This document shows positions 8,096 through 41,558 of a DNA stretch of 64,000 nucleotides, piece after piece (positions within the stretch are counted from its first letter, which is position 1; each line of letters opens with the position of its first letter). A model generated the notes under the pieces. It was given only the letters and a program-made list of their open reading frames with translations, did not search any database and had not been told where the DNA came from. The position numbers were made by a program, and so were the translations under genes. The DNA is from Candidatus Tantalella remota (GTDB lineage Bacteria; Omnitrophota; Gorgyraeia; Tantalellales; Tantalellaceae), in the NCBI GenBank assembly GCA_030765685.1, contig JAVCCB010000041.1:75549-139548 (forward strand), given 5' to 3'.

Positions 8096-9808
8096 CTAGG
8101 TTGCGCGCATTACCTCTTCAAGTGTCGTAAGCCCCTTGGCGAACTTAATCATCGCGTTATCCCGCAGTTTTCTTACCCCTTTTTTTGCGATGTATTCCCT
8201 GATATCATTTTCCGAGGCTTTCGAGTTTATCATTTCTTTTATTTTGTCGTCGATCAAAAGCGTCTCCAGCGTACCCAGCCTCCCCCGGTACCCCGTATCG
8301 TTACATTTTTTACACCCCTTGCCTTTGTAGAACTTGTCTACGTCTTTGACTTCGGGATATTTTTTTCTTATCTCATCTATCACTTCCTTCGGAATATCGG
8401 TCTCGGTCTTGCAATGCGGACATATCCTCCTTAAAAGCCTTTGCGCGCAGGCCATTACGAGGCTTGAAGCGACAAGGAACGGCTCTATCCCCATATTGAC
8501 AAGACGAGTTATCGCTCCTATCGAGTCGTTGGTGTGCAGCGTACTCAGCACCATCTGCCCCGTCAAGGAAGCTTTGATAGCAATATCAGCTGTCTCAAAA
8601 TCCCGTATTTCCCCGACCATTATGATATCAGGGCTCTGCCTGAGTATAGCTCTCAGTCCATTCGAAAAATCAAGGCCTATCTCGGGATGCACCGCTATCT
8701 GGGTTATACCGGCCACCTGGTACTCGACCGGATCCTCCACCGTGATAATGTTGCGTTCAGGGACATTCATCTCATTGAGTACCGAATAAAGGGTCGTAGA
8801 TTTACCACTCCCGGTGGGGCCGGTAACGAGAATTATGCCGAAAGGTTTCGACAAGGCTTCCTTAAAATCATCAAGAGGCCCGGGCAGAAACCCCAGCGTC
8901 TCAAGACCTACTGAAAGATTGCTTTTATCCAGCGCGCGCAGGACCATTTTATTACCGTAGGTTATCGGCAACGCCGACACCCTGAAATCAACCTCTTTCT
9001 TATCCATCTTTATCCTGAACCGCCCGTCCTGCGGTATCCTATTCTCGGTAATATCCATATTGGACATTATCTTAAGGCGCGTGAGAACAGAGTTCTGGTT
9101 CTTCGACGGAAGGTTGAACACATCGTGAAGTTCTCCGTCGATACGGTATCTTATCTTAAGGTTCTTTTCCTGAGGCTCTATGTGAATATCGCTCGCGCGA
9201 CGTTTTAGAGCTTCCCCTATTATCAGGTTGACCATCTTTACTATGGGCGCCGTTTTGCTTTGCTTGGCGATCTCCATAAGGTCCTGCCCCTCTGACTTCC
9301 CTATAACCTCGACATCCGTGCCTTCCTCTTCTTCCTCAAGAACAATAGAAGTAAAATCTTCCTCTTCATTGTTCTCATAAAAAGAGTTAAGCGCGTCCTG
9401 CAATTCTCTCCGCGTGGACAGTACAAGATGGACGTCACATCCCGTTACCGTCCTAACGTCATCAAGCGCAACTATGTCAGCGGGGTCTGATACTACAAGC
9501 GTCAGGCTTTTCCCCTTTTCCGCCAAGGGCACTACGACATACCTACGAGCAAGTTTTTCCGGCAAAAGGTTTACGGTATGAGCTTCCAGGTTAACCCTTG
9601 ACATATCTATCGGCGGGATCCCCAACTCACGGCTCAACACCTCCAAAAGGTCCGAGTCGGCGATTACCCCCTTTTCAACAAGCAGGTTGATAATATCGCC
9701 TTCGCCTTTGCTCTCGGCATCCTTGAGCGCCCCCTTAAGCTGCCGGACGTTTACCAAACCGCTGCCTTCAAGCGCTTTAAGGATCCTGGTTTTTATAGAT
9801 GGTCCCAT
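8096..9808 (-). CDS. pilB: PilB/GspE-family assembly ATPase, paralog 1
   Basis: 570 aa; N-terminal GSPII_E_N-like region, Walker A GPTGSGKSTTLYS, Asp/His boxes, tetracysteine CPHC...CKKC zinc motif. Confidence 0.85.
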   Translation of the reverse strand: MGPSIKTRILKALEGSGLVNVRQLKGALKDAESKGEGDIINLLVEKGVIADSDLLEVLSRELGIPPIDMSRVNLEAHTVNLLPEKLARRYVVVPLAEKGKSLTLVVSDPADIVALDDVRTVTGCDVHLVLSTRRELQDALNSFYENNEEEDFTSIVLEEEEEGTDVEVIGKSEGQDLMEIAKQSKTAPIVKMVNLIIGEALKRRASDIHIEPQEKNLKIRYRIDGELHDVFNLPSKNQNSVLTRLKIMSNMDITENRIPQDGRFRIKMDKKEVDFRVSALPITYGNKMVLRALDKSNLSVGLETLGFLPGPLDDFKEALSKPFGIILVTGPTGSGKSTTLYSVLNEMNVPERNIITVEDPVEYQVAGITQIAVHPEIGLDFSNGLRAILRQSPDIIMVGEIRDFETADIAIKASLTGQMVLSTLHTNDSIGAITRLVNMGIEPFLVASSLVMACAQRLLRRICPHCKTETDIPKEVIDEIRKKYPEVKDVDKFYKGKGCKKCNDTGYRGRLGTLETLLIDDKIKEMINSKASENDIREYIAKKGVRKLRDNAMIKFAKGLTTLEEVMRAT

Positions 9809-9815
9809 TCCTGAT

Positions 9816-11543
9816 CTACTCCATTACCCTATCGTCGATAGTCGTTCTAAGCACTTCCTCGAGGGAAGTGACCCCTTCAACAACGTTCTCTATACCGTTC
9901 TCTCTTAACGTTTTCATTCCCTCGTCCCTCGCGATTTTCTTTATTTCGTTTCCCTGCGCGCGTTCAAATATAAGTTCCTTGATACCCGGGGTCAGCTCTA
10001 TGCATTCCATTATCCCCATCCTACCCATATATCCCGTGTTGGAGCACCGATTGCATCCGCCGGGCCTGTATATCTTAGCCTTTTTCCCTTTTTGGTCAAA
10101 AAGCCCGTACTTTTCGGTGATCTCTTTCGTGGGAGCATAGGGCTCCCTGCACTCCGTACAGAGTTTTCGGAGCAAGCGCTGTGAGGCTATCAGCTCAACG
10201 GACGCCGCTATCAGAAAGGGTTCGACCCCCATGTTCATCATCCTTACAATGGACTCTGAAGCGGTGTTTGTATGAAGCGTGCTGAGCACAAGATGTCCGG
10301 TAAGCGCCGATTTTATAGCTACGTCCAGCGTATCATAATCCCGTATTTCCCCTACCATGATGATGTCCGGATCCTGCCGGAGTATGGACCGCAGACAGCT
10401 CGCGAACGTCAGATCTATGTCGTTGTTTATCGACACCTGATTTATCCCGGGAAGTTCATATTCAACCGGGTCTTCTACGGTCACCAGGTTCTTTCCCGGA
10501 TCATCCACATGTTTCAGTATGGAATAAAGAGTGGTCGTTTTCCCGCAACCGGTAGGCCCGCACGCAAGGATCATTCCGTGTGGCTTTTTACCGGCTTTCT
10601 TCATTTTGTCTATGTCACGTTCATGGAATCCGAGAGCGTCGATATCTATCCTGGCCTGACCCTTATCCAAAACCCTGAGCGCTACCTTCTCCCCGAAACT
10701 GGCAGGCACCACGGATATCCTGAAATCCACCTTACGGTTATCCATTTTTATCCTGAACCTGCCGTCCTGCGGCAGGCGGCGTTCGGCTATATCGAGATCC
10801 GACATGACCTTGAGCCTGGATATAAGCGCATGGTGAAATTTCCTCGGAGGATTGTATCTTTCGACAAGCACCCCGTCTATCCTGTACCTTACCCTGGAAT
10901 TCGATTCCATGGGTTCTATCAGTATATCGCTGGCCCGCTCTTTGACCGCGCGGCTTACGATCATATTCGTAAGCTTTACCACCGGTGCTTCTTCCGTTAT
11001 TCTCAAGAGTTCCCCGGAAGACACCTCCTCCTCGCCATCACCGGAGACCATCTCCATCGAAGCGCTTTTTATATCATCGACGATTTCGCTTATCTCTTCG
11101 TCCGCGGAAGCCTCGTAGTATCTTTGTATGGCTTCTTGCATACCGTCTTCGGTCACGATCACGGGACTGATCTCCAGGTTGGTCATGACCTTAAGATCGT
11201 CCAAAGCAAACACGTTCAGAGGATCGACCATAGCGACGGTCAGCTGCCTTCCGACGCGGGATATCGGAAGCGCGTGATACGAAGCGGCTATTCTTTTTGG
11301 GATAAGCCCTACGATCTCATCGTCAACCTTCAACCTGGAAAGGTCCAGTGGCGGAATGCCTATTTCCTGGCTGAAAAGCGTAAGAAGATCCTCTTTTTTA
11401 AGAGCTCCCGTCCCTATCAGGATCTCCGCGAGACTGCCGCCTCTCTGAGCGTGTATCTCCCGTGCCTTATTGAGGTCCTCTTCCAAAAGAACTTTTCTCT
11501 GCACCAGAAGATCACATGTCTTTTTCGTAAGCGTAAGCGCCAT
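9816..11543 (-). CDS. PilB/GspE-family assembly ATPase, paralog 2
   Basis: 575 aa; Walker A GPTGCGKTTTLYS, tetracysteine CTEC...CNRC, collinear with paralog 1 but clearly diverged. Confidence 0.85.
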   Translation of the reverse strand: MALTLTKKTCDLLVQRKVLLEEDLNKAREIHAQRGGSLAEILIGTGALKKEDLLTLFSQEIGIPPLDLSRLKVDDEIVGLIPKRIAASYHALPISRVGRQLTVAMVDPLNVFALDDLKVMTNLEISPVIVTEDGMQEAIQRYYEASADEEISEIVDDIKSASMEMVSGDGEEEVSSGELLRITEEAPVVKLTNMIVSRAVKERASDILIEPMESNSRVRYRIDGVLVERYNPPRKFHHALISRLKVMSDLDIAERRLPQDGRFRIKMDNRKVDFRISVVPASFGEKVALRVLDKGQARIDIDALGFHERDIDKMKKAGKKPHGMILACGPTGCGKTTTLYSILKHVDDPGKNLVTVEDPVEYELPGINQVSINNDIDLTFASCLRSILRQDPDIIMVGEIRDYDTLDVAIKSALTGHLVLSTLHTNTASESIVRMMNMGVEPFLIAASVELIASQRLLRKLCTECREPYAPTKEITEKYGLFDQKGKKAKIYRPGGCNRCSNTGYMGRMGIMECIELTPGIKELIFERAQGNEIKKIARDEGMKTLRENGIENVVEGVTSLEEVLRTTIDDRVME

Positions 11544-11552
11544 AGATCATTC

Positions 11553-12002
11553 TCACTTGCCCGCCGGCTTATACAGCTTATTCAGAGCTTCGTGAATAGC
11601 TGTGACCGTACATATGAATACATGGATTTTTTTCTTGCTCATCATCTCCACGTCCTCGATGGCTTTTTCATTAAGCGGGTTTGACATCGCCACTGTCAGC
11701 ATGTCACCGATAACGTCAATAGGAAGTATGCTGTACTGCCGAGCGACGTTCTCCGGGACGACCCTTGCCATCTCCTTCTTAAACTCGTACTGCTCAAGCG
11801 GTAGGAACGGGAACCCGTACTGCATCGTAAGGGCATGGACTATGTCGTCTTCTTTGACATACCCCAACTTGATAAGTATCTCACCCAGCAGGCCACCTTC
11901 ATGTCTTTGAAAATCCAAAGCGCGCTGCAGCTGCTCAGTTGTTATGACTTCGCTGGATACCAGTATTTCTCCGAGTTTTTTACCTATGCGTTTTATCGGC
12001 AT
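11553..12002 (-). CDS. standalone MshEN (GspE N-terminal) domain protein, putative c-di-GMP receptor
   Basis: 149 aa with two tandem 24-residue MshEN motifs: KLGEILVSSEVITTEQLQRALDFQ and LLGEILIKLGYVKEDDIVHALTMQ (pattern RLGxxLLxxGxIxxxxLxxALxxQ). No ATPase domain. Confidence 0.6.
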   Translation of the reverse strand: MPIKRIGKKLGEILVSSEVITTEQLQRALDFQRHEGGLLGEILIKLGYVKEDDIVHALTMQYGFPFLPLEQYEFKKEMARVVPENVARQYSILPIDVIGDMLTVAMSNPLNEKAIEDVEMMSKKKIHVFICTVTAIHEALNKLYKPAGK

Positions 12003-12035: not shown

Positions 12036-13097
12036 TCATCCAAGCAGTTTCTCAAGCTCTTCTATGTCCCCCGACCTCGCCAGCGCCTCCTCTACAGAAA
12101 CAACACCCGCCTTATAAAGTTCTGAAAGCGACTGGTTCATCGTACGCATCCCGTATTTCTGGGACGTCTGTATTATCGAATATATCTGATGCTCTTTCGC
12201 GTCCCGTATCATACTCCTGATAGCCGGCGTGGCCACGAGCACCTCTGACGCCAGTATCCTGCCCGGCTTGTCCTTAAATGGAAGCAGTTGCTGGGACAAT
12301 ATCCCAAGCAGAACGAACGACAGCTGTGCCCTTATCTGCTTCTGCTGGTGGGCTGGAAATACGTCTACCATCCTATTTATCGATTGCGTACTGTCGGACG
12401 TGTGCAGTGTCCCCAGCACCAGGTGTCCCGTATCGGCTATAACGAGCGCCTGCTGTATCGTATCAAGGTCGCGTAGCTCTCCTATCAGTATCACGTCCGG
12501 ATCCTGCCTTAAAACGTGCCTCAGGGCCTTTCCAAAAGACCGGGTGTCTTCTATGAGCTGTCTCTGGTCGATAATGGCTTTTTTATTCGCGTGAACAAAT
12601 TCTATCGGGTCCTCGACCGTCACGATGTGGCAGCTTCGATTCGCGTTTATCTCGTCCACCATAGCGGCAAGCGTCGTAGATTTCCCGCTTCCGGTAGCAC
12701 CCGTGACCAAAACCAGCCCTTTCTGTGCCCTGCAGAAACTCCTCACTATGTCGGCGGGTAATCCGCATTCCTCTATCGTCAGTATCTTCAGCGGTATGAG
12801 ACGTATCGCGCAGCCGATATTACCGCGCTGAAGAAAAAGGTTACCCCTGTACCTGCCTACATCTTCTATGGTAAAAGAAAAATCGAGTTCCATTTCATAT
12901 TCAAATTTTTTGACCTCTTCCGCGTTTATGAACCCGTAAACTATTTTCTGCACCTCCTCTGCCGAAAGCGCCCCACCTTCGAGACGAACAAGTTCGTTGT
13001 CTATCCGGTAATGCATCGGAGAATTAGCGCTTATGTGAAGATCTGACGCCCTTTTCTCGACCATATCGATAAGTATTTTTTTGATGTCCTCTCTCAT
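12036..13097 (-). CDS. pilT: PilT twitching-motility (retraction) ATPase
   Basis: 353 aa; Walker A GATGSGKSTTLAAM, HLVLGTLHT His box, PilT-typical length, no N-terminal extension. Confidence 0.85.
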   Translation of the reverse strand: MREDIKKILIDMVEKRASDLHISANSPMHYRIDNELVRLEGGALSAEEVQKIVYGFINAEEVKKFEYEMELDFSFTIEDVGRYRGNLFLQRGNIGCAIRLIPLKILTIEECGLPADIVRSFCRAQKGLVLVTGATGSGKSTTLAAMVDEINANRSCHIVTVEDPIEFVHANKKAIIDQRQLIEDTRSFGKALRHVLRQDPDVILIGELRDLDTIQQALVIADTGHLVLGTLHTSDSTQSINRMVDVFPAHQQKQIRAQLSFVLLGILSQQLLPFKDKPGRILASEVLVATPAIRSMIRDAKEHQIYSIIQTSQKYGMRTMNQSLSELYKAGVVSVEEALARSGDIEELEKLLG

Positions 13098-13133: not shown

Positions 13134-14549
13134 TTACATCCAGCCCACGACCCTGTTCCGTCCGTCCTCGCGAGCTTTTTTCATATAACTCCTGGCTTTC
13201 TCTATTATCTCCTTGCCGGTAGCTCCGTCTATCGGGTTCTCACCCACCCCTATGCTCGCGGTCACCCGGTCGCCTTCGGAGGCCGAGATCTCGAGTTCTT
13301 CTATGATCTTTCGCAAGTTCTCCGCCAACTCCATACTTTCCCTCTTGTTCATCTCCGGCAGCAAGATCCCGAATTCGTATTCTTCAAAACGCGCTATTTT
13401 CCCGATGGGCGGCAAAACCTTGGCCAGCATGTCCGATATGTGCTTTATTACCTGCTGGGACTTTGACAGGCCATAGTCATCGGAATACCGGTCAAAATTA
13501 TCCAGGCCCAGGACCACCAGAGAACAGGGCCTCTGATAATATACCGCCCTGTTGATCTCGTCTTCCAGGCGATCCTGCAAATACGAAAGCGTATAAAGCC
13601 CCGTCAGCGTATCGACGACTTCCAGGTCTTTCACCTTTTCGAATGCCTGCGATGTCTGGTATCCGAGAACCAGTTCCTTCTCAAAAGCACGAAGAACCTC
13701 TATATCCTCCGTACTGAAAGTAGCGGACGCGGTGTAATTGGCCAGCACCATGACTCCTATGACACTGTTGTGAAGTTTTAGGGGGAACATAACCATGTTC
13801 ATGCCGCCAAATTTATCTTTAAGTTCTTTCTGCCACGGCTTCTTTGTCGGGCGCGTATCCACCAGCAGGTATTCGTTGCGAACGAACAGTTTTTCTATGT
13901 CCCCAAGCTCTCCCTCTATCCGTGATACCGGGACTTCTTTTTCGCAATTATCACAGAAAGACCTCATGGAATACTTGCCCCCCTTTTCCTTCATAAAAAT
14001 CGCGCAGAATCCTCCGTACAATTCGCCGGCTATCCTGTCCGCGGCAAAACTGGTTATCTCATTAAAATCGGCGCCGGTGGAGATCAGGTCCCCCAGTCTC
14101 ATAAGATTCGTAAGGGTCAGGACCTTCTTATGCACCCTCGCATTCAAGACGGCAGTCTTACGGCTGTAAGCCTGCAACTCGCCGATGTAGTTTCGCATCT
14201 TACCCGTCATAGTGTTGACCGCGCTGGCAATGTCCCCCAGCTCGTCCTCTCTCATCACCATTATCTTGGAATCATACTGACCCTCAGCGATTATCTTTGT
14301 CTCAAGCGCGAGGTTGATGATCGGGTTCACTATTTCCTTCATCAAAATGTATCCCGCATAAGACACCCAGAGGACGAACATGACGATCGCCGTTACCTGG
14401 AACGTGCTGGCCGGGGATCCGGGAAATATGTAATAAGTCACAAGATACGCTATTACGAGCAGCGGTATGATGGACATCAAAGAAAAAGCCAAAAGTAGTT
14501 TATACTTAAGGCTTTTTGTCCCGACCGAAAGATATTGTAGTAAACCCAT
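13134..14549 (-). CDS. membrane HAMP-GAF-GGDEF-like protein with degenerate active site
   Basis: Two N-terminal TM helices, a HAMP-like linker, and a C-terminal GGDEF fold (LDNFDRYSDDYG...). The catalytic RYGGEEF position reads RFEEYEF, and no RxxD I-site sits upstream. Confidence 0.7.
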   Translation of the reverse strand: MGLLQYLSVGTKSLKYKLLLAFSLMSIIPLLVIAYLVTYYIFPGSPASTFQVTAIVMFVLWVSYAGYILMKEIVNPIINLALETKIIAEGQYDSKIMVMREDELGDIASAVNTMTGKMRNYIGELQAYSRKTAVLNARVHKKVLTLTNLMRLGDLISTGADFNEITSFAADRIAGELYGGFCAIFMKEKGGKYSMRSFCDNCEKEVPVSRIEGELGDIEKLFVRNEYLLVDTRPTKKPWQKELKDKFGGMNMVMFPLKLHNSVIGVMVLANYTASATFSTEDIEVLRAFEKELVLGYQTSQAFEKVKDLEVVDTLTGLYTLSYLQDRLEDEINRAVYYQRPCSLVVLGLDNFDRYSDDYGLSKSQQVIKHISDMLAKVLPPIGKIARFEEYEFGILLPEMNKRESMELAENLRKIIEELEISASEGDRVTASIGVGENPIDGATGKEIIEKARSYMKKAREDGRNRVVGWM

Positions 14550-33413: not shown

Positions 33414-36400
33414 TTATGCCGCTATAAGTGCTTTTCTTGCGGCCATATTGAACTCTTCTATAGCCTCATAGCTCATTCTAGACGCTTCCGGGAGTACCAG
33501 GACTATATGTCTGAGTACTTTTGCTATACCGCTTGCTGTATCCGGAAGGTCCAGATCGCTGCCAAGCATGAGCTTATACTGATTTTTGATGAACCCGACT
33601 ATCGGGCCGTATGTCATATGCATATCTTCTTCGTTCACGTTCTCGGGGATATTCGACGCTGCAAGAGCGATATTTACCATACCCGTGACCCGGAGAAGAT
33701 ATTCCTCCATGTCACCCTTGGGGACTTCAACATCAACATGCCCTTCCCCCTCAAAATCAGGCGCTTTGCAGTAAACCGCTATGAGGGATTCATCGGATCC
33801 TCTATCACTTGAGAACGGTCTAGCTTTTATATCAGCTTTAGACCTTTTATCCAGAATATCCGCGTACTTGCGTATGATACTTACCTGCGACCTGCTTAGT
33901 TTCGACTGGTCATATTTGATAGTGTATGTCCTGTCTTCCTGAAGCTGAGCGTGAAGCAGATCAATCGCCAAAACCGCCGCCTCCTCCGCGTCTTTAGTAG
34001 TCTCGGGGATTCCCGTGGGTGAGCCTTTGAGGTTCTGCATCTCTGATTCAAGTTTCAGAAATCCCCCGAGAGAACCCCCTTCGGGAATAAATAATCCACG
34101 GCTTAACAAAACTTCCTTTATGTCATCATCTAGGATAAGTTTTTTATCAGGGTTTGCCCCTATCTTGATCAAAACTTTCACGGCAGAGAACACCTGCACA
34201 ACCAGACACTCGTCAAAAGAAGCCATGTCTTTGCCAGGATTAGTTTCGCTCAGAAAACCTTCCCTATCCGTTGGCACAGCTAATCGAATGAATCCCGATT
34301 CGCTTGCCATCTCATGTCCGAGCACACCTCGTATACATTTTTTAGCGCTATCATCGTTAGTGTTTTCAATATTACGTATTACCTCTCCGTCCGGATGTGT
34401 CAACATTCCGCCTGAATGATACCAATACGCTATTGTTCCGTCCTGATAGTAAGTCTCTCCCTCCGGATTCCCAACAGGCTCTTTTGGCAACATTTCCCTG
34501 CTAGGGTTCGCACGTCCATATATAAACTTATTGTCTCCATCCAGTTGCATACTAAATATCGCCGCGTCATCCAATGAACGACTTATACTCTCCGAAAGAG
34601 CGTATCTAAAAGGTCTCTCTTTCCCTGAAAGCGTCTCACTCTCGGACTGGACTTTTATATCCGGAAACTCTTTCGGACGAATAGAACCCTTGGGTTTATC
34701 ACCAAAAGAACTGCTCTCTTCACCCGTTCCCTGCCGCGCCTCGGTGCCTTTATCGGGAAGATCCGCAGGTGAACCTTTGGTTTTTTTCTCCTGTTCTTGT
34801 GCTATTTGAAATCCCGCAGTTACTATATTACCGCTTCTGCCGGGTCCCCCTGAAGGAGTGATCTTATGATAATCCGCTCGTCTTATTATCCCCAGGCCCG
34901 CTCCGCTTCCCTTGCCTCTTGTTCCATTGACTCCGTCCCAAAAATCTATGAAATCCTGAATGTGATCCCTGGGCTTAACGCTGGTATCAATAGGACTTCC
35001 CACATCCACGCCGTTGATCTCTATATATTTCTTACCGTTTTCATGTTTATAACGAATAATAAGAAATCCTCCGGAAGAGTACCTCGAGATATTACTTGAG
35101 ATCTCCCATGCCGTCCTTGCCACACCATTCAAAGGATATTCATCCTCAGGGACCAGAGGATCAGTATTGTTGCCAACGCTTCCAAATACCGTGCTTCCGA
35201 TAGCAGTCATTTCTTCTTCTGTAAATCCTATCCGCTCAACAAAATCCTTATTCGGCCTGCCCGACCATATCGTCTTTATACCTGATACGGAAAACCCGGG
35301 TTGTATTCTACGATGTCGTTGGGGAGCGATAAAAACCACCTTTACATCCGGCATCTGTTTGAGCTTCTTGATGGCGGTTCCCAACTGTTCGTCATCGCCT
35401 TCCAATAATGCTTTCCATGATTTGTTTCGTAGATCTAAAAAGTTTTCCTCCCCGGGAACATCCACACCGAATTTTTCTAAAGCTTTTTCCTCGGCGTCCA
35501 TATTTGTCTCTGGAAGACCCCCGGGTGAGCCTTTGGGTTTTTCACCAACAGAAATACTCTCTTCGCCCGTCCCCTGCCGCGCCTCGGTTCCTTTATCAGA
35601 AAGATCCACGGGTGAGCCTTTGGTTTCCCTTCCGTGTTTCCCGGCTAAGACCTTTATTTCAGTTACGGGCTCATCGGTCAACTCGAACGGTTCTTTTTCT
35701 CCGACGATCACCGGGGACTTTACCGTTCTGAGCAAGATCACATCAGACGGAAAATACTTGAGGTCCGTCTCTTCCAGCGGGTCGTCATAACGCCAGGACT
35801 TCATACCGATAGCTGTTTTGTAATTCCAGTCCCCCTTGATGACCACAAGGTCCAGCTCCGCAAACTCCTTTAATATATCCAGCTTTCCCGCCGCGTACAG
35901 GTCTTCACCATCAGTAAAAGCATCCGTGGCGGTCATCTGAAGGGTCCCGCTCCTTAACGCCTCCTCTAGAGTCACAGCAAGCGACATTGTCTCGGAAGTA
36001 TCCGCCATCGTGTTGATAAAATCGATCAAGCCTTCTTTTGTGACATCGCTTATCATAAACGGCATTTTGCGCGTAAAGAGTTTAACAGTCTTACCTTCTT
36101 CAAGTATCCGTGCCGCGATCATAAGGTCTATCAAAAGCTCCCCGTAATTATCCAGGACTATCCCTACTTTATTTTTTCGCTCCAACAGCTTCACTGCCTG
36201 AGACAGATGCTCGCTCTCTTCCTCCCGGGTAAATAATTTTCGAGCTTCTGCTGCTATGTCGACATTCTCGCTTTTAAGCAGCGAGTCGAACCTGTTAAAA
36301 GACGCGCTGAGCTTTAAAAGCTGTGAGGGCGTCAGGGACTCAAAAAGAGATACATGCTCTCTGTACAGACTTAAAGCAAAACCATTCAACCGGTCGCGGG

Positions 36401-39400
36401 CAGCGCCAAAAGGATCTTCCACAAACCTGCCCGCCGAGCCGAATATCTCTGCCATCGCCCGCGGGTACCGGATCTTTCGAGCCGATCCCGTTCTCACCGT
36501 CTCAGCTTCCTCCCTTTTTATCCTGACTATATTCCTCACCACTTCCGCGGTCGTCTCAAGCTCTCCACGCTCGTTCGTCACGACAAAATCGAATTCCCCG
36601 CTGTGCTCCATCTGATCTTTCGCGTTTCGCATACGAACGGTGATCTCTTCTTCTGTCTCAGAGCCTCTCTTTTTTAACCTTGACGTCAGCTCATCCATAC
36701 TCTCGGCTTTTATGAAAATACTTATATTGTTTTTGGGGAACATCTCCCGTATCTGCCTGGCTCCTTCGGGATCGACATTTACTATGATGTCTTTCCCGCC
36801 GGCTATAAGGTCGTCAATATGATCTTTCTCCAGCCCGCAAAACTCTCCCGGGCGCACTTCCACGTCCTGCAGAAAGGCCCCCTCATCTTCCTTTTCCTTA
36901 AAGTTCTCCTTTGACGTGAAAAAATAATGGACTCCGTCTTCCTCCATCTCCCCCGTTTCAAGAGAACGGGGTTTTCTTGTAGTCGTGCTTACCGCCCTCT
37001 CAAGGCCGGGCAGCCTTGCTGTCAGTTTCGCTATAGCCGCGTCCTTACCAGCACCGCTCGGACCCGATACTATAATGATAAGCGGATCCCCGGCCGGATG
37101 ATTAAAAAGTCCTTTTTCCGCCTCTATTCCGGCCATTTCAAACCCTGCCCTTTTAGCTTCATCACCGGCATTTTTACCTATTATCCCGAAAACTACCGAA
37201 AACGTTTTTCTTATGTCCTCCGCCCAGAAATCTTCACCCGTTACCTGAGTGACAATGGGCTCTCTCTCTGTCTCCGGAACCTCGGCGCCCAGCTTCCGCC
37301 TGCAGTATTTGCTTATGGGAAGATGTATGTCGTCGGCAAGAGCCTCCCACATATCCCTGCCGGCATTCGGGTTCTTCGCGGCCTCGTATCTTACGTCCCT
37401 GTTAACATATCCGGGCAACTGACTTAAAACTACCAGATCCTCATGGTAAGTCGCGCTGTTCCTGGCGGCGAAAAATAAAGGAACCCAGTGCCCCTCTTCC
37501 AGGGATATCCGCAGTACTTCCTTCAGGATGGACGGATCTCTGGATACACTTGCCAGGGTACTTAGAACCGCTTCCGGCGTAGAGTTCTCGGGAAAGGCTG
37601 CCTTCCCGGAGTATGCTTCGTCTATAACAGTGCCAAGATCGTATCCGGAGAGGCCTGATATCCTCCTGCCGCATATATCAAGGATACCGGGCAGATAAGA
37701 ATGAAAAACTGCTATGGCTTCAGCGCGAAAACGTTTCAACTCCACCAAAGGAGGCCCCTTGTCACCATTAGCTTCAATATACTCCCCGCCTATGACCCTC
37801 GTCTCTCGCCCGTAGAACCGCTGGACATCGTCACGAAAAGACAGAATAAAGTCATAATAACGGTCCGCGAATTCCCTATCCTTTTCCGTCAAAGGTATAT
37901 CAAGATATTTCAATGTGCCTAAAAAGAACGAGAAATATTTGAACATTCCCGCGTCATGTTTCAGATTGATGTCCGCGTCGCTTACCCCCCGGGTCCGCTC
38001 CTCCGCTATGAGATTACCCATCGCGAAGAAAAGAGCCGTTTCAGCTTTTTTCGAACGGATCTCTACGGGGGATAGGCCAAGAATATCCCCCAGAGAGGCT
38101 TCAGTTCCAAGCGGTGTAGCGTCAAGTATCATCATCCTATCATAAGGATAATCAATAAAGAGTTCACGCATCTCATCTTTTAAACCGTGCCTTACCTGTA
38201 TGGTCTTGCCGGTAACAATCTTTACAGCGTCAAGAAATGGCCCGATACCCGGGTCTTTCCTGCCGGACTCTACGATAAAAAGATCAAGGTCGGAATAAAA
38301 GTTGGATTCCTCACGGGATACGCTGCCGCTTACAAGAACATCCGTCGAAGGCCTCAGGTAGATCTCTTTCAGTTTCAAAAGGACGGCACGGTCCAAAGCA
38401 GCATACTGCCTTCCCGTTTCCCTTCCTTCGGGCCGTCCTGTCTCGAGAGCCCGATCCCTCACCCTTCCTTTTTCTGAAGCATATTGACGGGCACGTCTCG
38501 CGAGATATGGATCCACTTTCGCGGCGATATTTAAAACATTACCGGGATCTACGGCTAAGACCTCGCCCTGTATTATCTTCCGGTACTCTTCGACCGGCAA
38601 AAATATGGGAATGATCCCGCTCGCGTCACTTTTATCCCCTATCATTATTTCGCTGCCGTTATGCATGAAGAACTGCACCTTCCTGAAGTCTCTTTCCGGC
38701 GACTCTTCCAGGAGATCCCGCGCCTTATTGAGAAAATGATTGAAATCCATATCAATACATACATCGCAGAAAGAAGGAGCTGTCTCCATGAAACGGTTTA
38801 TTTTCTTCTTACGACGTTCCATAAGCGATGTTATCGGGCGGTCCTCGTCCCCGATCTCGCCAAGGTCGATCTTGTCAAGATTTATCCCGTCACGGGCCAT
38901 ACAACACAGCGACTGGGTCGAGTTAGCCAGGACTATTATCCTTGTAGCACCTATAAGGCACTCATCAAAATCCTTCTTTGGCGTATAGGTGACTCCGTAC
39001 GGACCTGCTACCCTGAAATCCGAATCTTCATATCTCTCTCTTGCCTCCTTGAACTTTTTCATCGCCGCCTCCAGAAGATGCGGCTTTTCTTTATAGAACC
39101 CCTGATCGAACGTCTTCCTCACCGCTACCCAGTTCACGCCTGCTTTCTTCATTATCCGTATAAAATCTTCCACTTCACTATGGTTCTCAGGCATTATAAG
39201 GAACGTCGCTCCAATAAGCAGCTCCCCATCCCTTCCCAGTTCATGCCTCTTCTGAGAGATCTTTCCGAGGTTTTCCACCAGTCTGTCGAACGTGAATGCG
39301 CGTTTCTTGGGACGATGCACTTTGACCCTTGTCTCATTGGTAGCTGCGTTGACACTCACTCGTATGTGATCCATATACCGGCTTATTACGTCTATTAACC

Positions 39401-41558
39401 GGTCGTTAAGCCCGTCGCCGTTTGTCTCAAGAGTAAGCTTAAATCCCAGGGCATGGGCATGCGACACTATCTTTAGAAAATTCGGGTTCGTAAGCGGCTC
39501 ACCGCCGCCCGTGAACCTCAGGCTTTTTACGCCCATTTGCGCGAAATCGTCCAGCATCTTAATTCCCTTATCCAGGTGAATTATCTTTTCATGGCTTTTC
39601 CGGAAAGGCGCGTCAAAACACATCACACAGTCGTTGTTGCAAAGATTCGAAATATCAATATCCACCCTGACCGGCGCGATCTCACCCGTAACCAGATGTT
39701 TTCTTAAACCCTCAATAAACTCCAGCGGATCTTCGGGACAGAACTTTGACGCGTTGGTCCTGAACAGTGATATCCGTTCGCCGTCAAAAGCGGCCATCCC
39801 GTCCCAGTTATTAAAATCACTCACTACCGACCTGTGACCAGATACAGAATTCTTAGTTTTACGGACAATTTTTTCGATGAGTTCTTTTACTTCTGGACGC
39901 TTATCTTTAGGAATATTGTAACGATGAAGAGGACGTTCCTCTCCCTTTTCTCCGACCTGTAGACGGATTTCACTTACAGACTTTATTAAACCCTTTACTA
40001 AGTCCGCAGAAAAATTCATTATTGTGTCGTTAAATCGATAGTGGCTGGTTTTTTCGGCGGGAACGAATATTCCCAGGTCTTTGAGTATCTCGAATTCCTT
40101 AGCGACTGTTCTTTTAGCGAACGGCCTTATCTCGGTCATTTCGCGGACGGATATCCCCTCCCCGCTTAGCGCCTTAGCAAGAAGCCCTTCATCATCCCTT
40201 ATCATCTCCAGAAGATCCGCGGGTGAACCTTTGGGAACATTCTGATCCAATGTTTCTCTATTTATTTTATTTCGTAAAATCACCATATTCCCCGTCTGTG
40301 AAGCTTTCCGATGTATACTATCCACTTCTTGCATATACCACATTCCTTGTCCAGCCCCACCGCTTGCTGTCACGCCGTATCCGCCCCATGCCGCTTCCAT
40401 ACCATTCGCAACTCTCTCATCATTCGTAACCCATCTCGTGCTCATTGGACCATTTCCCTTATCAACACTGCTGGCCTCAACAAAATCCTGTTCAAACCGG
40501 ATAATTAAAAATCCTTCAATTGCATGTTGCCATATATTTCGAGCTAGTTCTTGTATTGCCACGGCCATTTTATCAGGCCGCTTCATGCCGTGGTCATTCG
40601 TATATACACCGATCATGTCAATTTCTTCATCTGTCAAACCGATTTTTTGAAGTGCCTGGATAGGAGACTCTGTGAATGCGTTAAGGTGCGCTATATCCTT
40701 TAGTCCCAATCTCTCACCCAATCCTGATTTATTACCGGTATTGCGTGCTGAGGAATAAAAAACTTTAGCATTATGGTCTTTTTCCATTATATTAATGATC
40801 TCTCGAATCCTATCTTCATCCCTTTCTTCTTTTCTTACCTCGCTCCACAATTCTTTCCGCAACTCCGAAAATCTCTTTTTTTCGGGCTTCACTTTCTTGC
40901 CGCTAACCTGATAAAACCTCATCCCGCTGTTTCGAGCAAGACGTATCTTCTCATTCCTTCGGCTCGCTTCCCAAAACTCTCCAGTAAAATAATTGTGTTT
41001 GTTGGCGTTAATAACAGGCTCTATTTTATTAAGGAAGATAGCGTCTTCGAACGGAAGCTCGCCGCGCAAAATAACTCCTTCATTAAGAAGTATCAGCCAT
41101 TCGAAAGCCTTAGCGACCGTGTCGTTCACATAAAGGTTCAGGGGAAGTTCGTTAGTACGGGCGGGCGGAAAGTTATTTAATATTACTTCTTTAATACCCT
41201 GGTATCTGAATCTCTCCTTCTTCTTGAGTATCTGCATCAACGCTTCTATGTCCTCGTGAAGAACGGACCGGAGGAATGTTATGTCATCCGCGGCCATATT
41301 CTCATCTATCAGATATTTGCCGGAAGAAAGAAGAAGACATTTAGCGTCGTTATTATCAAGAAGTCTCCTAGCATCGTCGGAATCGGCTAACCTGACATTG
41401 GAATGCCTGTAAAGCTCGGCAAGGACTTTCCTTTTGACAATAGGATTTTGGGCGGCGGGAAGCGTACCAAGACCATAACTGAACGTGTTCAATGAAAACG
41501 TCAGAATAACGATTAATGATATGGTTTTTTTCAGTACTCTCTTCATTTTCCTTCCCAA
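33414..41558 (-). CDS. giant 2714-aa multidomain protein of unknown function (signal anchor, GHKL-like, radical SAM/SPASM-like, GlnE-like nucleotidyltransferase, guanylate kinase, DUF89-like phosphatase, second GHKL-like segment, long C-terminal region)
   Basis: Single stop-free 8145-nt ORF. N-terminus MGRKMKRVLKKTISLIVILTFSLNTFSYG. CNNDCVMC (CxxxCxxC) at aa 640-647 plus downstream cysteine pairs. GSVSREESNFYSDLDLFIV at aa 1078-1096. GPSGAGK...TTTRKPR...EDGVHYFF at aa 1499-1546. VLDNYGE...VIKGDWNYK at aa 1802-1914. Recurrent KGSP linkers. Confidence 0.8.
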   Translation of the reverse strand: MGRKMKRVLKKTISLIVILTFSLNTFSYGLGTLPAAQNPIVKRKVLAELYRHSNVRLADSDDARRLLDNNDAKCLLLSSGKYLIDENMAADDITFLRSVLHEDIEALMQILKKKERFRYQGIKEVILNNFPPARTNELPLNLYVNDTVAKAFEWLILLNEGVILRGELPFEDAIFLNKIEPVINANKHNYFTGEFWEASRRNEKIRLARNSGMRFYQVSGKKVKPEKKRFSELRKELWSEVRKEERDEDRIREIINIMEKDHNAKVFYSSARNTGNKSGLGERLGLKDIAHLNAFTESPIQALQKIGLTDEEIDMIGVYTNDHGMKRPDKMAVAIQELARNIWQHAIEGFLIIRFEQDFVEASSVDKGNGPMSTRWVTNDERVANGMEAAWGGYGVTASGGAGQGMWYMQEVDSIHRKASQTGNMVILRNKINRETLDQNVPKGSPADLLEMIRDDEGLLAKALSGEGISVREMTEIRPFAKRTVAKEFEILKDLGIFVPAEKTSHYRFNDTIMNFSADLVKGLIKSVSEIRLQVGEKGEERPLHRYNIPKDKRPEVKELIEKIVRKTKNSVSGHRSVVSDFNNWDGMAAFDGERISLFRTNASKFCPEDPLEFIEGLRKHLVTGEIAPVRVDIDISNLCNNDCVMCFDAPFRKSHEKIIHLDKGIKMLDDFAQMGVKSLRFTGGGEPLTNPNFLKIVSHAHALGFKLTLETNGDGLNDRLIDVISRYMDHIRVSVNAATNETRVKVHRPKKRAFTFDRLVENLGKISQKRHELGRDGELLIGATFLIMPENHSEVEDFIRIMKKAGVNWVAVRKTFDQGFYKEKPHLLEAAMKKFKEARERYEDSDFRVAGPYGVTYTPKKDFDECLIGATRIIVLANSTQSLCCMARDGINLDKIDLGEIGDEDRPITSLMERRKKKINRFMETAPSFCDVCIDMDFNHFLNKARDLLEESPERDFRKVQFFMHNGSEIMIGDKSDASGIIPIFLPVEEYRKIIQGEVLAVDPGNVLNIAAKVDPYLARRARQYASEKGRVRDRALETGRPEGRETGRQYAALDRAVLLKLKEIYLRPSTDVLVSGSVSREESNFYSDLDLFIVESGRKDPGIGPFLDAVKIVTGKTIQVRHGLKDEMRELFIDYPYDRMMILDATPLGTEASLGDILGLSPVEIRSKKAETALFFAMGNLIAEERTRGVSDADINLKHDAGMFKYFSFFLGTLKYLDIPLTEKDREFADRYYDFILSFRDDVQRFYGRETRVIGGEYIEANGDKGPPLVELKRFRAEAIAVFHSYLPGILDICGRRISGLSGYDLGTVIDEAYSGKAAFPENSTPEAVLSTLASVSRDPSILKEVLRISLEEGHWVPLFFAARNSATYHEDLVVLSQLPGYVNRDVRYEAAKNPNAGRDMWEALADDIHLPISKYCRRKLGAEVPETEREPIVTQVTGEDFWAEDIRKTFSVVFGIIGKNAGDEAKRAGFEMAGIEAEKGLFNHPAGDPLIIIVSGPSGAGKDAAIAKLTARLPGLERAVSTTTRKPRSLETGEMEEDGVHYFFTSKENFKEKEDEGAFLQDVEVRPGEFCGLEKDHIDDLIAGGKDIIVNVDPEGARQIREMFPKNNISIFIKAESMDELTSRLKKRGSETEEEITVRMRNAKDQMEHSGEFDFVVTNERGELETTAEVVRNIVRIKREEAETVRTGSARKIRYPRAMAEIFGSAGRFVEDPFGAARDRLNGFALSLYREHVSLFESLTPSQLLKLSASFNRFDSLLKSENVDIAAEARKLFTREEESEHLSQAVKLLERKNKVGIVLDNYGELLIDLMIAARILEEGKTVKLFTRKMPFMISDVTKEGLIDFINTMADTSETMSLAVTLEEALRSGTLQMTATDAFTDGEDLYAAGKLDILKEFAELDLVVIKGDWNYKTAIGMKSWRYDDPLEETDLKYFPSDVILLRTVKSPVIVGEKEPFELTDEPVTEIKVLAGKHGRETKGSPVDLSDKGTEARQGTGEESISVGEKPKGSPGGLPETNMDAEEKALEKFGVDVPGEENFLDLRNKSWKALLEGDDEQLGTAIKKLKQMPDVKVVFIAPQRHRRIQPGFSVSGIKTIWSGRPNKDFVERIGFTEEEMTAIGSTVFGSVGNNTDPLVPEDEYPLNGVARTAWEISSNISRYSSGGFLIIRYKHENGKKYIEINGVDVGSPIDTSVKPRDHIQDFIDFWDGVNGTRGKGSGAGLGIIRRADYHKITPSGGPGRSGNIVTAGFQIAQEQEKKTKGSPADLPDKGTEARQGTGEESSSFGDKPKGSIRPKEFPDIKVQSESETLSGKERPFRYALSESISRSLDDAAIFSMQLDGDNKFIYGRANPSREMLPKEPVGNPEGETYYQDGTIAYWYHSGGMLTHPDGEVIRNIENTNDDSAKKCIRGVLGHEMASESGFIRLAVPTDREGFLSETNPGKDMASFDECLVVQVFSAVKVLIKIGANPDKKLILDDDIKEVLLSRGLFIPEGGSLGGFLKLESEMQNLKGSPTGIPETTKDAEEAAVLAIDLLHAQLQEDRTYTIKYDQSKLSRSQVSIIRKYADILDKRSKADIKARPFSSDRGSDESLIAVYCKAPDFEGEGHVDVEVPKGDMEEYLLRVTGMVNIALAASNIPENVNEEDMHMTYGPIVGFIKNQYKLMLGSDLDLPDTASGIAKVLRHIVLVLPEASRMSYEAIEEFNMAARKALIAA

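Follow-up and report, generated by a model that had tools for sequence, protein, structure and literature searches.

Two diverged PilB-type extension ATPases and a stand-alone MshEN protein in a type IVa pilus operon of Omnitrophota

Introduction

A stretch of 64,000 nucleotides from the uncultured bacterium Candidatus Tantalella remota (phylum Omnitrophota; assembly GCA_030765685.1, contig JAVCCB010000041.1, forward-strand positions 75,549 to 139,548), referred to here as the window and numbered from its first letter, carries a type IVa pilus (T4aP) operon in which two PilB-type extension ATPases are encoded in tandem on the minus strand. PilBa, the upstream member (9816-11543, 575 aa), and PilBb, the downstream member (8096-9808, 570 aa), directly follow a small gene on the same strand for a free-standing MshEN domain (11553-12002, 149 aa), a predicted receptor of cyclic dimeric guanosine monophosphate (c-di-GMP). 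Phylogeny and gene order indicate that the pair arose by an old duplication which predates the divergence of the sampled Omnitrophota, and that its members have been kept adjacent across them. We think it rather probable that one T4aP machine is served by these two distinct extension ATPases, with c-di-GMP input provided in trans by the MshEN protein.

Pilus extension was long held to need one PilB, and the PilB/TfpB pair of Acinetobacter baylyi is the only studied exception. That case left unsettled whether the platform is used by a mixed ring of both motors or by each motor in turn (PMC11656802). Because the Omnitrophota motors are sister paralogs, co-encoded and marked by distinct substitutions at nearly invariant sites, this question becomes testable with recombinant proteins. 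The free-standing MshEN sensor, which is fused to PilBa in one relative, likewise offers a route to study how the first N-terminal domain (N1D) of PilB, still little understood, exerts its control. Among the features suggested to underlie the host-dependent or predatory lifestyle of ultra-small Omnitrophota are type IVa pili (PMC10066038).

Two PilB-type motors in one pilus operon

A sequence-only reading of the window had described two full-length GspE-family ATPases of 570 and 575 aa lying head to tail between pilC and pilT. Both open reading frames (ORFs) are present in that orientation, together with the motifs that had been quoted for them, GPTGSGKSTT and CPHC...CKKC in PilBb, and GPTGCGKTTT and CTEC...CNRC in PilBa. 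The placement proved accurate on the pilC side but not on the other, where the stand-alone MshEN gene intervenes and pilT lies beyond it. Substantial divergence had also been noted, and BLASTP aligns the two proteins with 43% identity over 536 residues (E 3e-168). The N-terminal domains likened to GSPII_E_N are recovered in both by Pfam MshEN/T2SSE_N at E ~1e-19, with T2SSE at E ~1e-135; MshEN covers residues 62-147 and T2SSE residues 183-568 of each protein, giving both the architecture of N1D, second N-terminal domain (N2D) and C-terminal domain (CTD).

The PilB model TIGR02538 is the best-scoring model for each paralog, at 654.1 bits for PilBa and 630.7 bits for PilBb, although both scores fall under its cutoff of 675.65. 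The GspE model TIGR02533 gives 589.7 and 605.3 bits, under a cutoff of 630.25, and the TfpB model NF053534 gives 443.6 and 447.1 bits against a cutoff of 850, so that neither protein is a TfpB ortholog; the ComGA model stays far under its cutoff for both. Solved structures rank in the same order for the two paralogs, with Geobacter PilB first (551 bits for PilBa, 528 for PilBb), followed by Myxococcus xanthus PilB, PilF and GspE (406 and 423 bits). NCBI labels both ATPases as GspE/PulE family only. The gene context of both is of the pil type, with pilC, pilMNO(P), a probable pilQ, pilins and pilT. On the model scores and the PDB ranking we reject a GspE, ComGA or TfpB identity; they give no support to a Com-type identity, or to one resembling a type II secretion system (T2SS), such as the sequence-only reading had raised.

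The roles of individual residues are taken from Geobacter metallireducens PilB, in which H420 is the gamma-phosphate histidine and R271 and R286 are arginine fingers (PMC5424180). At least 29 of 30 sequences in each of the PilBa and PilBb clades defined below retain the Walker A lysine, the Asp-box glutamate, the catalytic glutamate, R271, R286, H420 and the four zinc-binding cysteines. The full set of PilB motifs, including the atypical Walker B, is found in both clades with the exception of the first His-box histidine, which is glutamine in 24 of the 30 clade B sequences. Given this conservation we reject a pseudo-ATPase or dead enzyme, and the regulatory paralog entertained by the sequence-only reading is not supported in so far as such a paralog would be catalytically dead. 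Both proteins are predicted to be catalytically competent T4aP extension ATPases of the PilB type.

Age and retention of the pair

A scan with PilBa peptides, in which each species was represented by one genome, returned 22 loci. Nineteen of these group with the window and are treated as Omnitrophota; several carry the automatic labels Planctomycetales or "uncultured bacterium," and all named close homologs are Omnitrophota. In every one of the 19, a single PilBa-like gene stands next to a single PilBb-like gene, always in this order and then followed by PilC, with the two ATPase genes overlapping or separated by at most 14 nt in 13 of them. The small MshEN gene precedes PilBa wherever upstream DNA is present. 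The order MshEN-PilBa-PilBb-(second MshEN)-PilC is thereby found in 19 further Omnitrophota loci, a common arrangement that the sequence-only reading had missed, as it had the adjacent MshEN gene itself. At least 31 contigs are apparently common to the best 120 PilBb matches and the best 120 MshEN matches, which implies co-location on further contigs.

Neighbour joining of 44 sequences (200 bootstraps) places the PilBa sequences in a clade A (n = 20, bootstrap 85) and the PilBb sequences in a clade B (n = 20, bootstrap 86). Every genome contributes a single sequence to each, and the two clades agree in their internal groupings. The clades are sisters with a bootstrap of 70, and the single-copy PilB proteins of Acidobacteriota lie outside them. 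A profile search through 1.84 billion proteins yielded 149 representatives for a larger tree, which were split into their ATPase cores to give 207 units; here clades A (26 units) and B (30 units) are still sisters with nothing else inside, at a weak support of 18.

Identity within a clade is 0.67 in N2D and CTD and equal for A and B, and between A and B of one genome it is 0.47-0.49 in these domains and 0.33 in N1D. Between the window and a locus 91-96% identical to it (L001), the ratio of nonsynonymous to synonymous substitution rates (dN/dS) is 0.07 for PilBa, 0.03 for PilBb, 0.03 for the MshEN protein and 0.06 for PilC; PilBa and PilBb are under strong purifying selection. The phylogeny rules out a recent duplication. 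Recent duplicates with near-identical N-terminal domains, the outcome that the sequence-only reading had named as fatal to a functional split, are not what the loci contain. Because there are two old clades with one copy of each per genome, and N-terminal domains 33% identical within a genome, the split can be regarded as old and maintained.

Paralog-specific residues and the composition of the ring

For each clade the reference was a set of 123 further representatives of the PilB type, and the sites considered were those at which this set is at least 85% conserved. In PilBb the changes fall in the CTD. The first His-box histidine (H413 in G. metallireducens), His in all 123 of the other representatives, in 28 of 28 halves of the fused proteins described below and in 26 of 26 clade A units, is replaced by Gln in 18 of the 20 loci. 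The Asp of RQDPD, present in 95% of the others, is Ser in 28 of 30 clade B units (RQSPD in 19 of 20 loci), and the GKT of Walker A has become GKS. PilBa has lost the His of the N2D motif "ASDIH" (Phe or Leu in 20/20 loci; His in 99% of the others), carries Cys for the Thr that precedes GPTG (Thr in 89%), and reads HT(T/N)T, usually HTTT, for HTND, where the first changed site is Asn in 98% of the others. At the early-branching locus L019 the first histidine of the His box is still present in both paralogs.

In the structure of G. metallireducens PilB, T411 is flanked on its two sides by H413 and H420 where packing units meet in a closed contact, and the authors of that structure suggested that the His box mediates cooperativity between chains (PMC5424180). 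Since the first His-box histidine and the RQDPD aspartate are the residues changed, PilBb may be a subunit with altered coupling, either kinetic or cooperative, rather than an inactive one. The division of changes between the N2D of PilBa and the CTD of PilBb is the pattern that would be expected under mutual dependence, and is no proof of it.

Proteins with two ATPase cores in one chain are found elsewhere in the PilB family. Fourteen of the 149 representatives are about 1000 aa long, retain two intact Walker A motifs and consist of N1D-N2D-CTD, a linker and a further N2D-CTD. Thirteen of them form a clade of their own (support 100) in which the N- and C-terminal halves are mutual relatives, and the remaining one (P0242) represents a separate double-core duplication (support 92). 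We considered whether these might be PilBa-PilBb fusions, and rejected this because each half has its nearest relative in the other, within a separate clade supported at 100. The double-core proteins thus appear to be duplications independent of the Omnitrophota pair, with two cores per building block having evolved repeatedly. The family comprises P0241, P0243, P0246-P0261 and P0278 as well as L024:5187-8225, the one double-core locus seen, which has no pil neighbours; one double-core cluster recurs on several contigs. A further group of PilB-type ATPases (P0244, P0252 and P0260) has three or four tandem MshEN-type N-terminal domains in the manner of PilF, and the Nitrospirota member P0244 carries C-terminal zinc-ribbon repeats besides.

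Either a mixed ring or two kinds of homohexamer could form the motor of this pilus. We lean tentatively towards two kinds of homohexamer that share one platform, a view informed by PilB/TfpB and by the dependence between PilT and PilU, and one that we would put at well short of even chances. We find less likely, and on the whole doubtful, an obligate mixed ring such as A3B3, in which PilBa and PilBb would alternate in a hetero-hexamer locked by complementary degeneration after the duplication, with the MshEN protein as a detachable subunit for c-di-GMP control. The strict one-to-one co-occurrence of adjacent genes, often overlapping or with very short spacers that suggest coupled translation, speaks for such a ring. 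So does the way in which derived changes at otherwise invariant sites are shared out, with those of PilBa in "ASDIH" and after the His box and those of PilBb at RQDPD and at H413, which sits at the closed contact around T411. The independently arisen fused proteins show that two cores per building block recur, and their C-terminal half also alters the RQDPD aspartate (Asn in 62%). Against this, PilT and PilU form separate rings, and no PilBa-PilBb fusion was found within the Omnitrophota clades. We know of no hetero-hexamer demonstrated in the PilT-like ATPase family, and a mixed ring would, to our knowledge, be the first hetero-oligomeric motor reported in that superfamily. A 2024 review still poses the hetero-hexamer as an open question (PMC11656802).

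The stand-alone MshEN protein as a candidate c-di-GMP receptor

The MshEN domain binds c-di-GMP through two tandem motifs of 24 residues, in which mutation of G11 or G40 abolishes binding and changes of Arg9, Arg38 or Gln32 cost less than 5-fold (Wang et al. 2016, PMC5013675). The numbering of the stand-alone MshEN protein coincides with that of Vibrio cholerae MshE, and its hydrophobic motif positions are conserved. G11 is present in 25 of 25 stand-alone proteins and in none of the 18 N-terminal domains of either PilBa (Q/K/C) or PilBb (I/L). The pattern is similar for G40 (25/25 stand-alone, 2/18 PilBa, 0/18 PilBb, where it is D/E) and for Q61 (25/25, 0/18 and 0/18), and Q32 is found in 24/25 stand-alone proteins and in 11/18 of the N-terminal domains of each ATPase. 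The Acidobacteriota outgroup PilBs keep perfect c-di-GMP motifs. The sequence-only reading had proposed checking whether the ATPases themselves carry intact MshEN motifs; they do not, as the binding glycines are lost in both. The predicted loss of binding lies in specific residues, and the fold is retained.

The window protein scores 68.5 bits with the c-di-GMP motif model NF053729, against a cutoff of 38, and the N-terminal domains of the two window ATPases score 29.3 and 18 bits, below that cutoff. Its best solved relatives are the N-terminal domains of PilF (144 bits), and MshE (5HTL) is also matched; NCBI labels it a hypothetical protein. The stand-alone MshEN proteins form their own clade (support 57) and are not fragments of neighbouring genes. 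A second stand-alone type, with a clade support of 98, lies between PilBb and PilC in 6 of the 20 loci (L002, L004, L006, L009, L017 and L018) and is absent from the window.

Two loci bear on the relation of this protein to PilBa. In L023 (8001-10298, P0245) a single protein of 765 aa joins a canonical MshEN domain to a full PilBa through a low-complexity linker, and PilBb begins 7 nt after the fusion and is followed by PilC in the same gene order. In L019 (6282-9583) PilBa is a 408-aa protein without N1D, with its own Shine-Dalgarno sequence and ATG and a start 5 nt after the MshEN gene, and PilBb lacks the MshEN_N subdomain. The stand-alone MshEN protein is probably a c-di-GMP sensor, to judge from its residues, and we regard it as the candidate for this role in the operon.

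A gene for a HAMP-GAF-GGDEF protein (13134-14549, minus strand; Pfam GGDEF, HAMP and GAF) heads the gene series. Its active site is degenerate, with RFEEYEF in place of RxGG[DE]EF, and the GG[DE]EF motif is absent both from this protein and from its five orthologs beside the same cluster (L003, L004, L007, L009 and L017), which read RFGDH[EQT]F, RCGDHEF or YCQKGEF. The degenerate site in all six rules out this neighbour as a diguanylate cyclase that feeds the MshEN protein. It is a conserved degenerate GGDEF protein that may act as a receptor or scaffold comparable to FimX.

A proposed single machine with two motors

We infer a shared machine, a division of labour between the motors, and regulation in trans. 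Both motors would dock on the same PilC/PilM platform and share the work of extension between them, for example with one responsible for initiation and the other for processive extension, a division that has been put forward for TfpB and PilB. The c-di-GMP signal would enter through the small MshEN protein, acting in trans and most likely by binding PilBa. The combination of two PilB-family ATPases with one set of machine genes holds in the 64-kb window and within the 20 loci, and a tblastn search with the locus proteins found no second PilC or PilM within the window.

Several points weigh against this interpretation. The sisterhood of clades A and B has modest support, with bootstraps of 70 among the 44 sequences and 18 among the 207 units. 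The finding of both paralogs in 20 of 20 loci is conditional on the presence of PilBa, because PilBa peptides served as the query that brought in the 19 related loci. The count of a single PilC, PilM and secretin covers 64 kb of the genome, and a second set elsewhere is possible. With regard to c-di-GMP, the motif hidden Markov model still matches most ATPase N-terminal domains at E<0.01 (15/18 and 18/18, beside 25/25 for the stand-alone proteins), and as it does not discriminate at the level of groups, the determinants were judged residue by residue. The stand-alone proteins keep Arg9 in 2 of 25 cases and Arg38 in 0 of 25, and the operon encodes no active diguanylate cyclase; for these two reasons, binding of c-di-GMP by the stand-alone protein is only plausible.

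It could also be that one of the paralogs drives a different filament or secretion process, such as a pseudopilus, DNA uptake or a pilus of another pilin, working on the same platform or on one encoded elsewhere. We consider this improbable. The two pilins of the locus are only 52% identical, multiple PilB homologs mostly serve separate machines (V. cholerae, Clostridium perfringens and Saccharibacteria), and Omnitrophota often carry extra Tad systems (PMC10066038), all of which would suit a second filament. Those precedents, however, have a PilC of their own for each ATPase, whereas there is one operon with a single PilC in the 20 loci; PilB ranks first for both paralogs, which miss the GspE, ComGA and TfpB cutoffs alike, and PilBa and PilBb are mutually closest relatives. 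As for redundancy, in the form of a recent duplication, a decaying copy or a dead regulatory paralog, it is very improbable, for although the bare fact of duplication would fit and H413Q could in principle lower the activity of PilBb, it is opposed by the 43% identity, by clades older than the sampled Omnitrophota divergence, by dN/dS values of 0.03-0.07, by the conservation of all catalytic residues in both clades and by equal within-clade conservation (0.67 for N2D and CTD). We therefore prefer to think in terms of two distinct extension motors at work on one T4aP machine.

Other genes of the operon and window

All genes of the operon lie on the minus strand and are transcribed in the order GGDEF gene, PilT, MshEN, PilBa, PilBb, PilC, pilins, TPR gene, PilMNO(P) and the secretin-like gene. 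The retraction ATPase PilT (12036-13097) is recognized by TIGR01420 at 453 bits against a cutoff of 319, and the platform protein PilC (6862-8082) by two Pfam T2SSF matches. The spacers from the GGDEF gene to pilC measure 36, 33, 9, 7 and 13 nt in order, so that the MshEN stop lies 9 nt ahead of the PilBa start, PilBb starts 7 nt past the PilBa stop, and PilC starts 13 nt past the PilBb stop. A GGAG lies 10 nt 5' of the PilBb ATG, within the 3' end of PilBa. These short spacers and the GGAG inside the end of PilBa suggest one transcript with coupled translation. Scans for promoters and terminators were uninformative, with counts close to the shuffle expectation.

The two pilins (6349-6702 and 5854-6183) each carry the N-terminal methylation motif (Pfam N_methyl). 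The protein encoded at 3947-5845 (632 aa), which begins 8 nt after the second pilin gene, has a long N-terminal region with multiple transmembrane segments and no Pfam match, and TPR repeats at its C-terminus; a glycosyltransferase of GT-C type that modifies pilins is one possible identity. A gap of 641 nt (3306-3946) separates this TPR gene from pilM and contains no convincing ORF and no Rfam match, and neither a c-di-GMP riboswitch nor any other Rfam RNA was found in the operon or its gaps, at gathering thresholds or at E<1. The next genes are PilM (2280-3305, Pfam PilM_2), PilN (1589-2260, a weak Pfam PilN match), PilO (960-1592, Pfam PilO) and a PilP/T2SSB-like gene (593-1039, a weak Pfam T2SSB match). 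The window start cuts a secretin-like N-terminus (1-532), in whose translated sequence a signal peptide and an N0-like segment can be recognized; from this sequence pattern and the position of the gene, the product is probably PilQ. Elsewhere in the window, a giant ORF of 2714 aa (33414-41558) combines radical SAM, guanylate kinase and ARMT1-like phosphatase domains.

Comparison with known systems

Full-text searches of the literature for Omnitrophota together with PilB or type IV pili turned up no description of the PilB pair or of the stand-alone MshEN protein. The main survey of the Omnitrophota reports T4aP genes as widespread in the phylum and never mentions PilB or c-di-GMP (PMC10066038).

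The closest functional parallel is that of A. baylyi, where PilB and TfpB are two extension motors of one T4aP with distinct, non-interchangeable roles (Ellison et al. 2021, PMC8213720). As proposed for the window, two PilB-family ATPases belong to one T4aP machine, and the choice between mixed and separate rings is open there too, with both A. baylyi motors active and non-redundant. The two cases differ in descent, TfpB being as far from PilB as GspE or MshE are, whereas the Omnitrophota pair are tandem sister paralogs in one operon. A. baylyi has the inhibitor CpiA, and the Omnitrophota locus has the stand-alone MshEN protein. PilT and PilU resemble the pair as diverged paralogous motors of the same family, encoded by adjacent genes in Pseudomonas aeruginosa, but are retraction motors without N1D/MshEN domains or zinc-binding cysteines. 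The accessory motor of that pair performs best in coupling with its primary partner (PMC11656802). Two PilB paralogs in one small or host-associated bacterium, PilB1 and PilB2, are also found in Saccharibacteria and C. perfringens, where each PilB has its own PilC and alignment proteins at a separate locus and makes a distinct pilus, in contrast to the one operon and one PilC found here.

Where regulation is concerned, V. cholerae MshE and M. xanthus PilB share the MshEN-N2D-CTD architecture and the same family of tandem 24-residue motifs (PMC5013675), but keep the motif intact in the ATPase; in the Omnitrophota locus both ATPases have a degenerate motif, and the small protein alone has an intact one. 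Like Thermus thermophilus PilF, with its three GSPII/MshEN-type N-domains, the Omnitrophota system provides several MshEN-type modules per extension motor; PilF carries its modules in one polypeptide with one core, while three to four modules are here spread over separate genes alongside two cores. The FimX-PilZ-PilB circuit of Xanthomonas and Pseudomonas, which includes a degenerate GGDEF-family protein (PMC8389850; PMC12943098), similarly pairs a separate receptor with a PilB that has no c-di-GMP sensing of its own. In that circuit the receptor is the FimX EAL domain, acting through the adaptor PilZ, whereas the candidate receptor of the Omnitrophota is an MshEN domain protein. That two extension motors can serve one pilus is already known from A. 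baylyi; what the Omnitrophota would add is an independent origin, an arrangement as tandem sisters, distinctive substitutions adjacent to the active site and a sensor domain detached from the motor.

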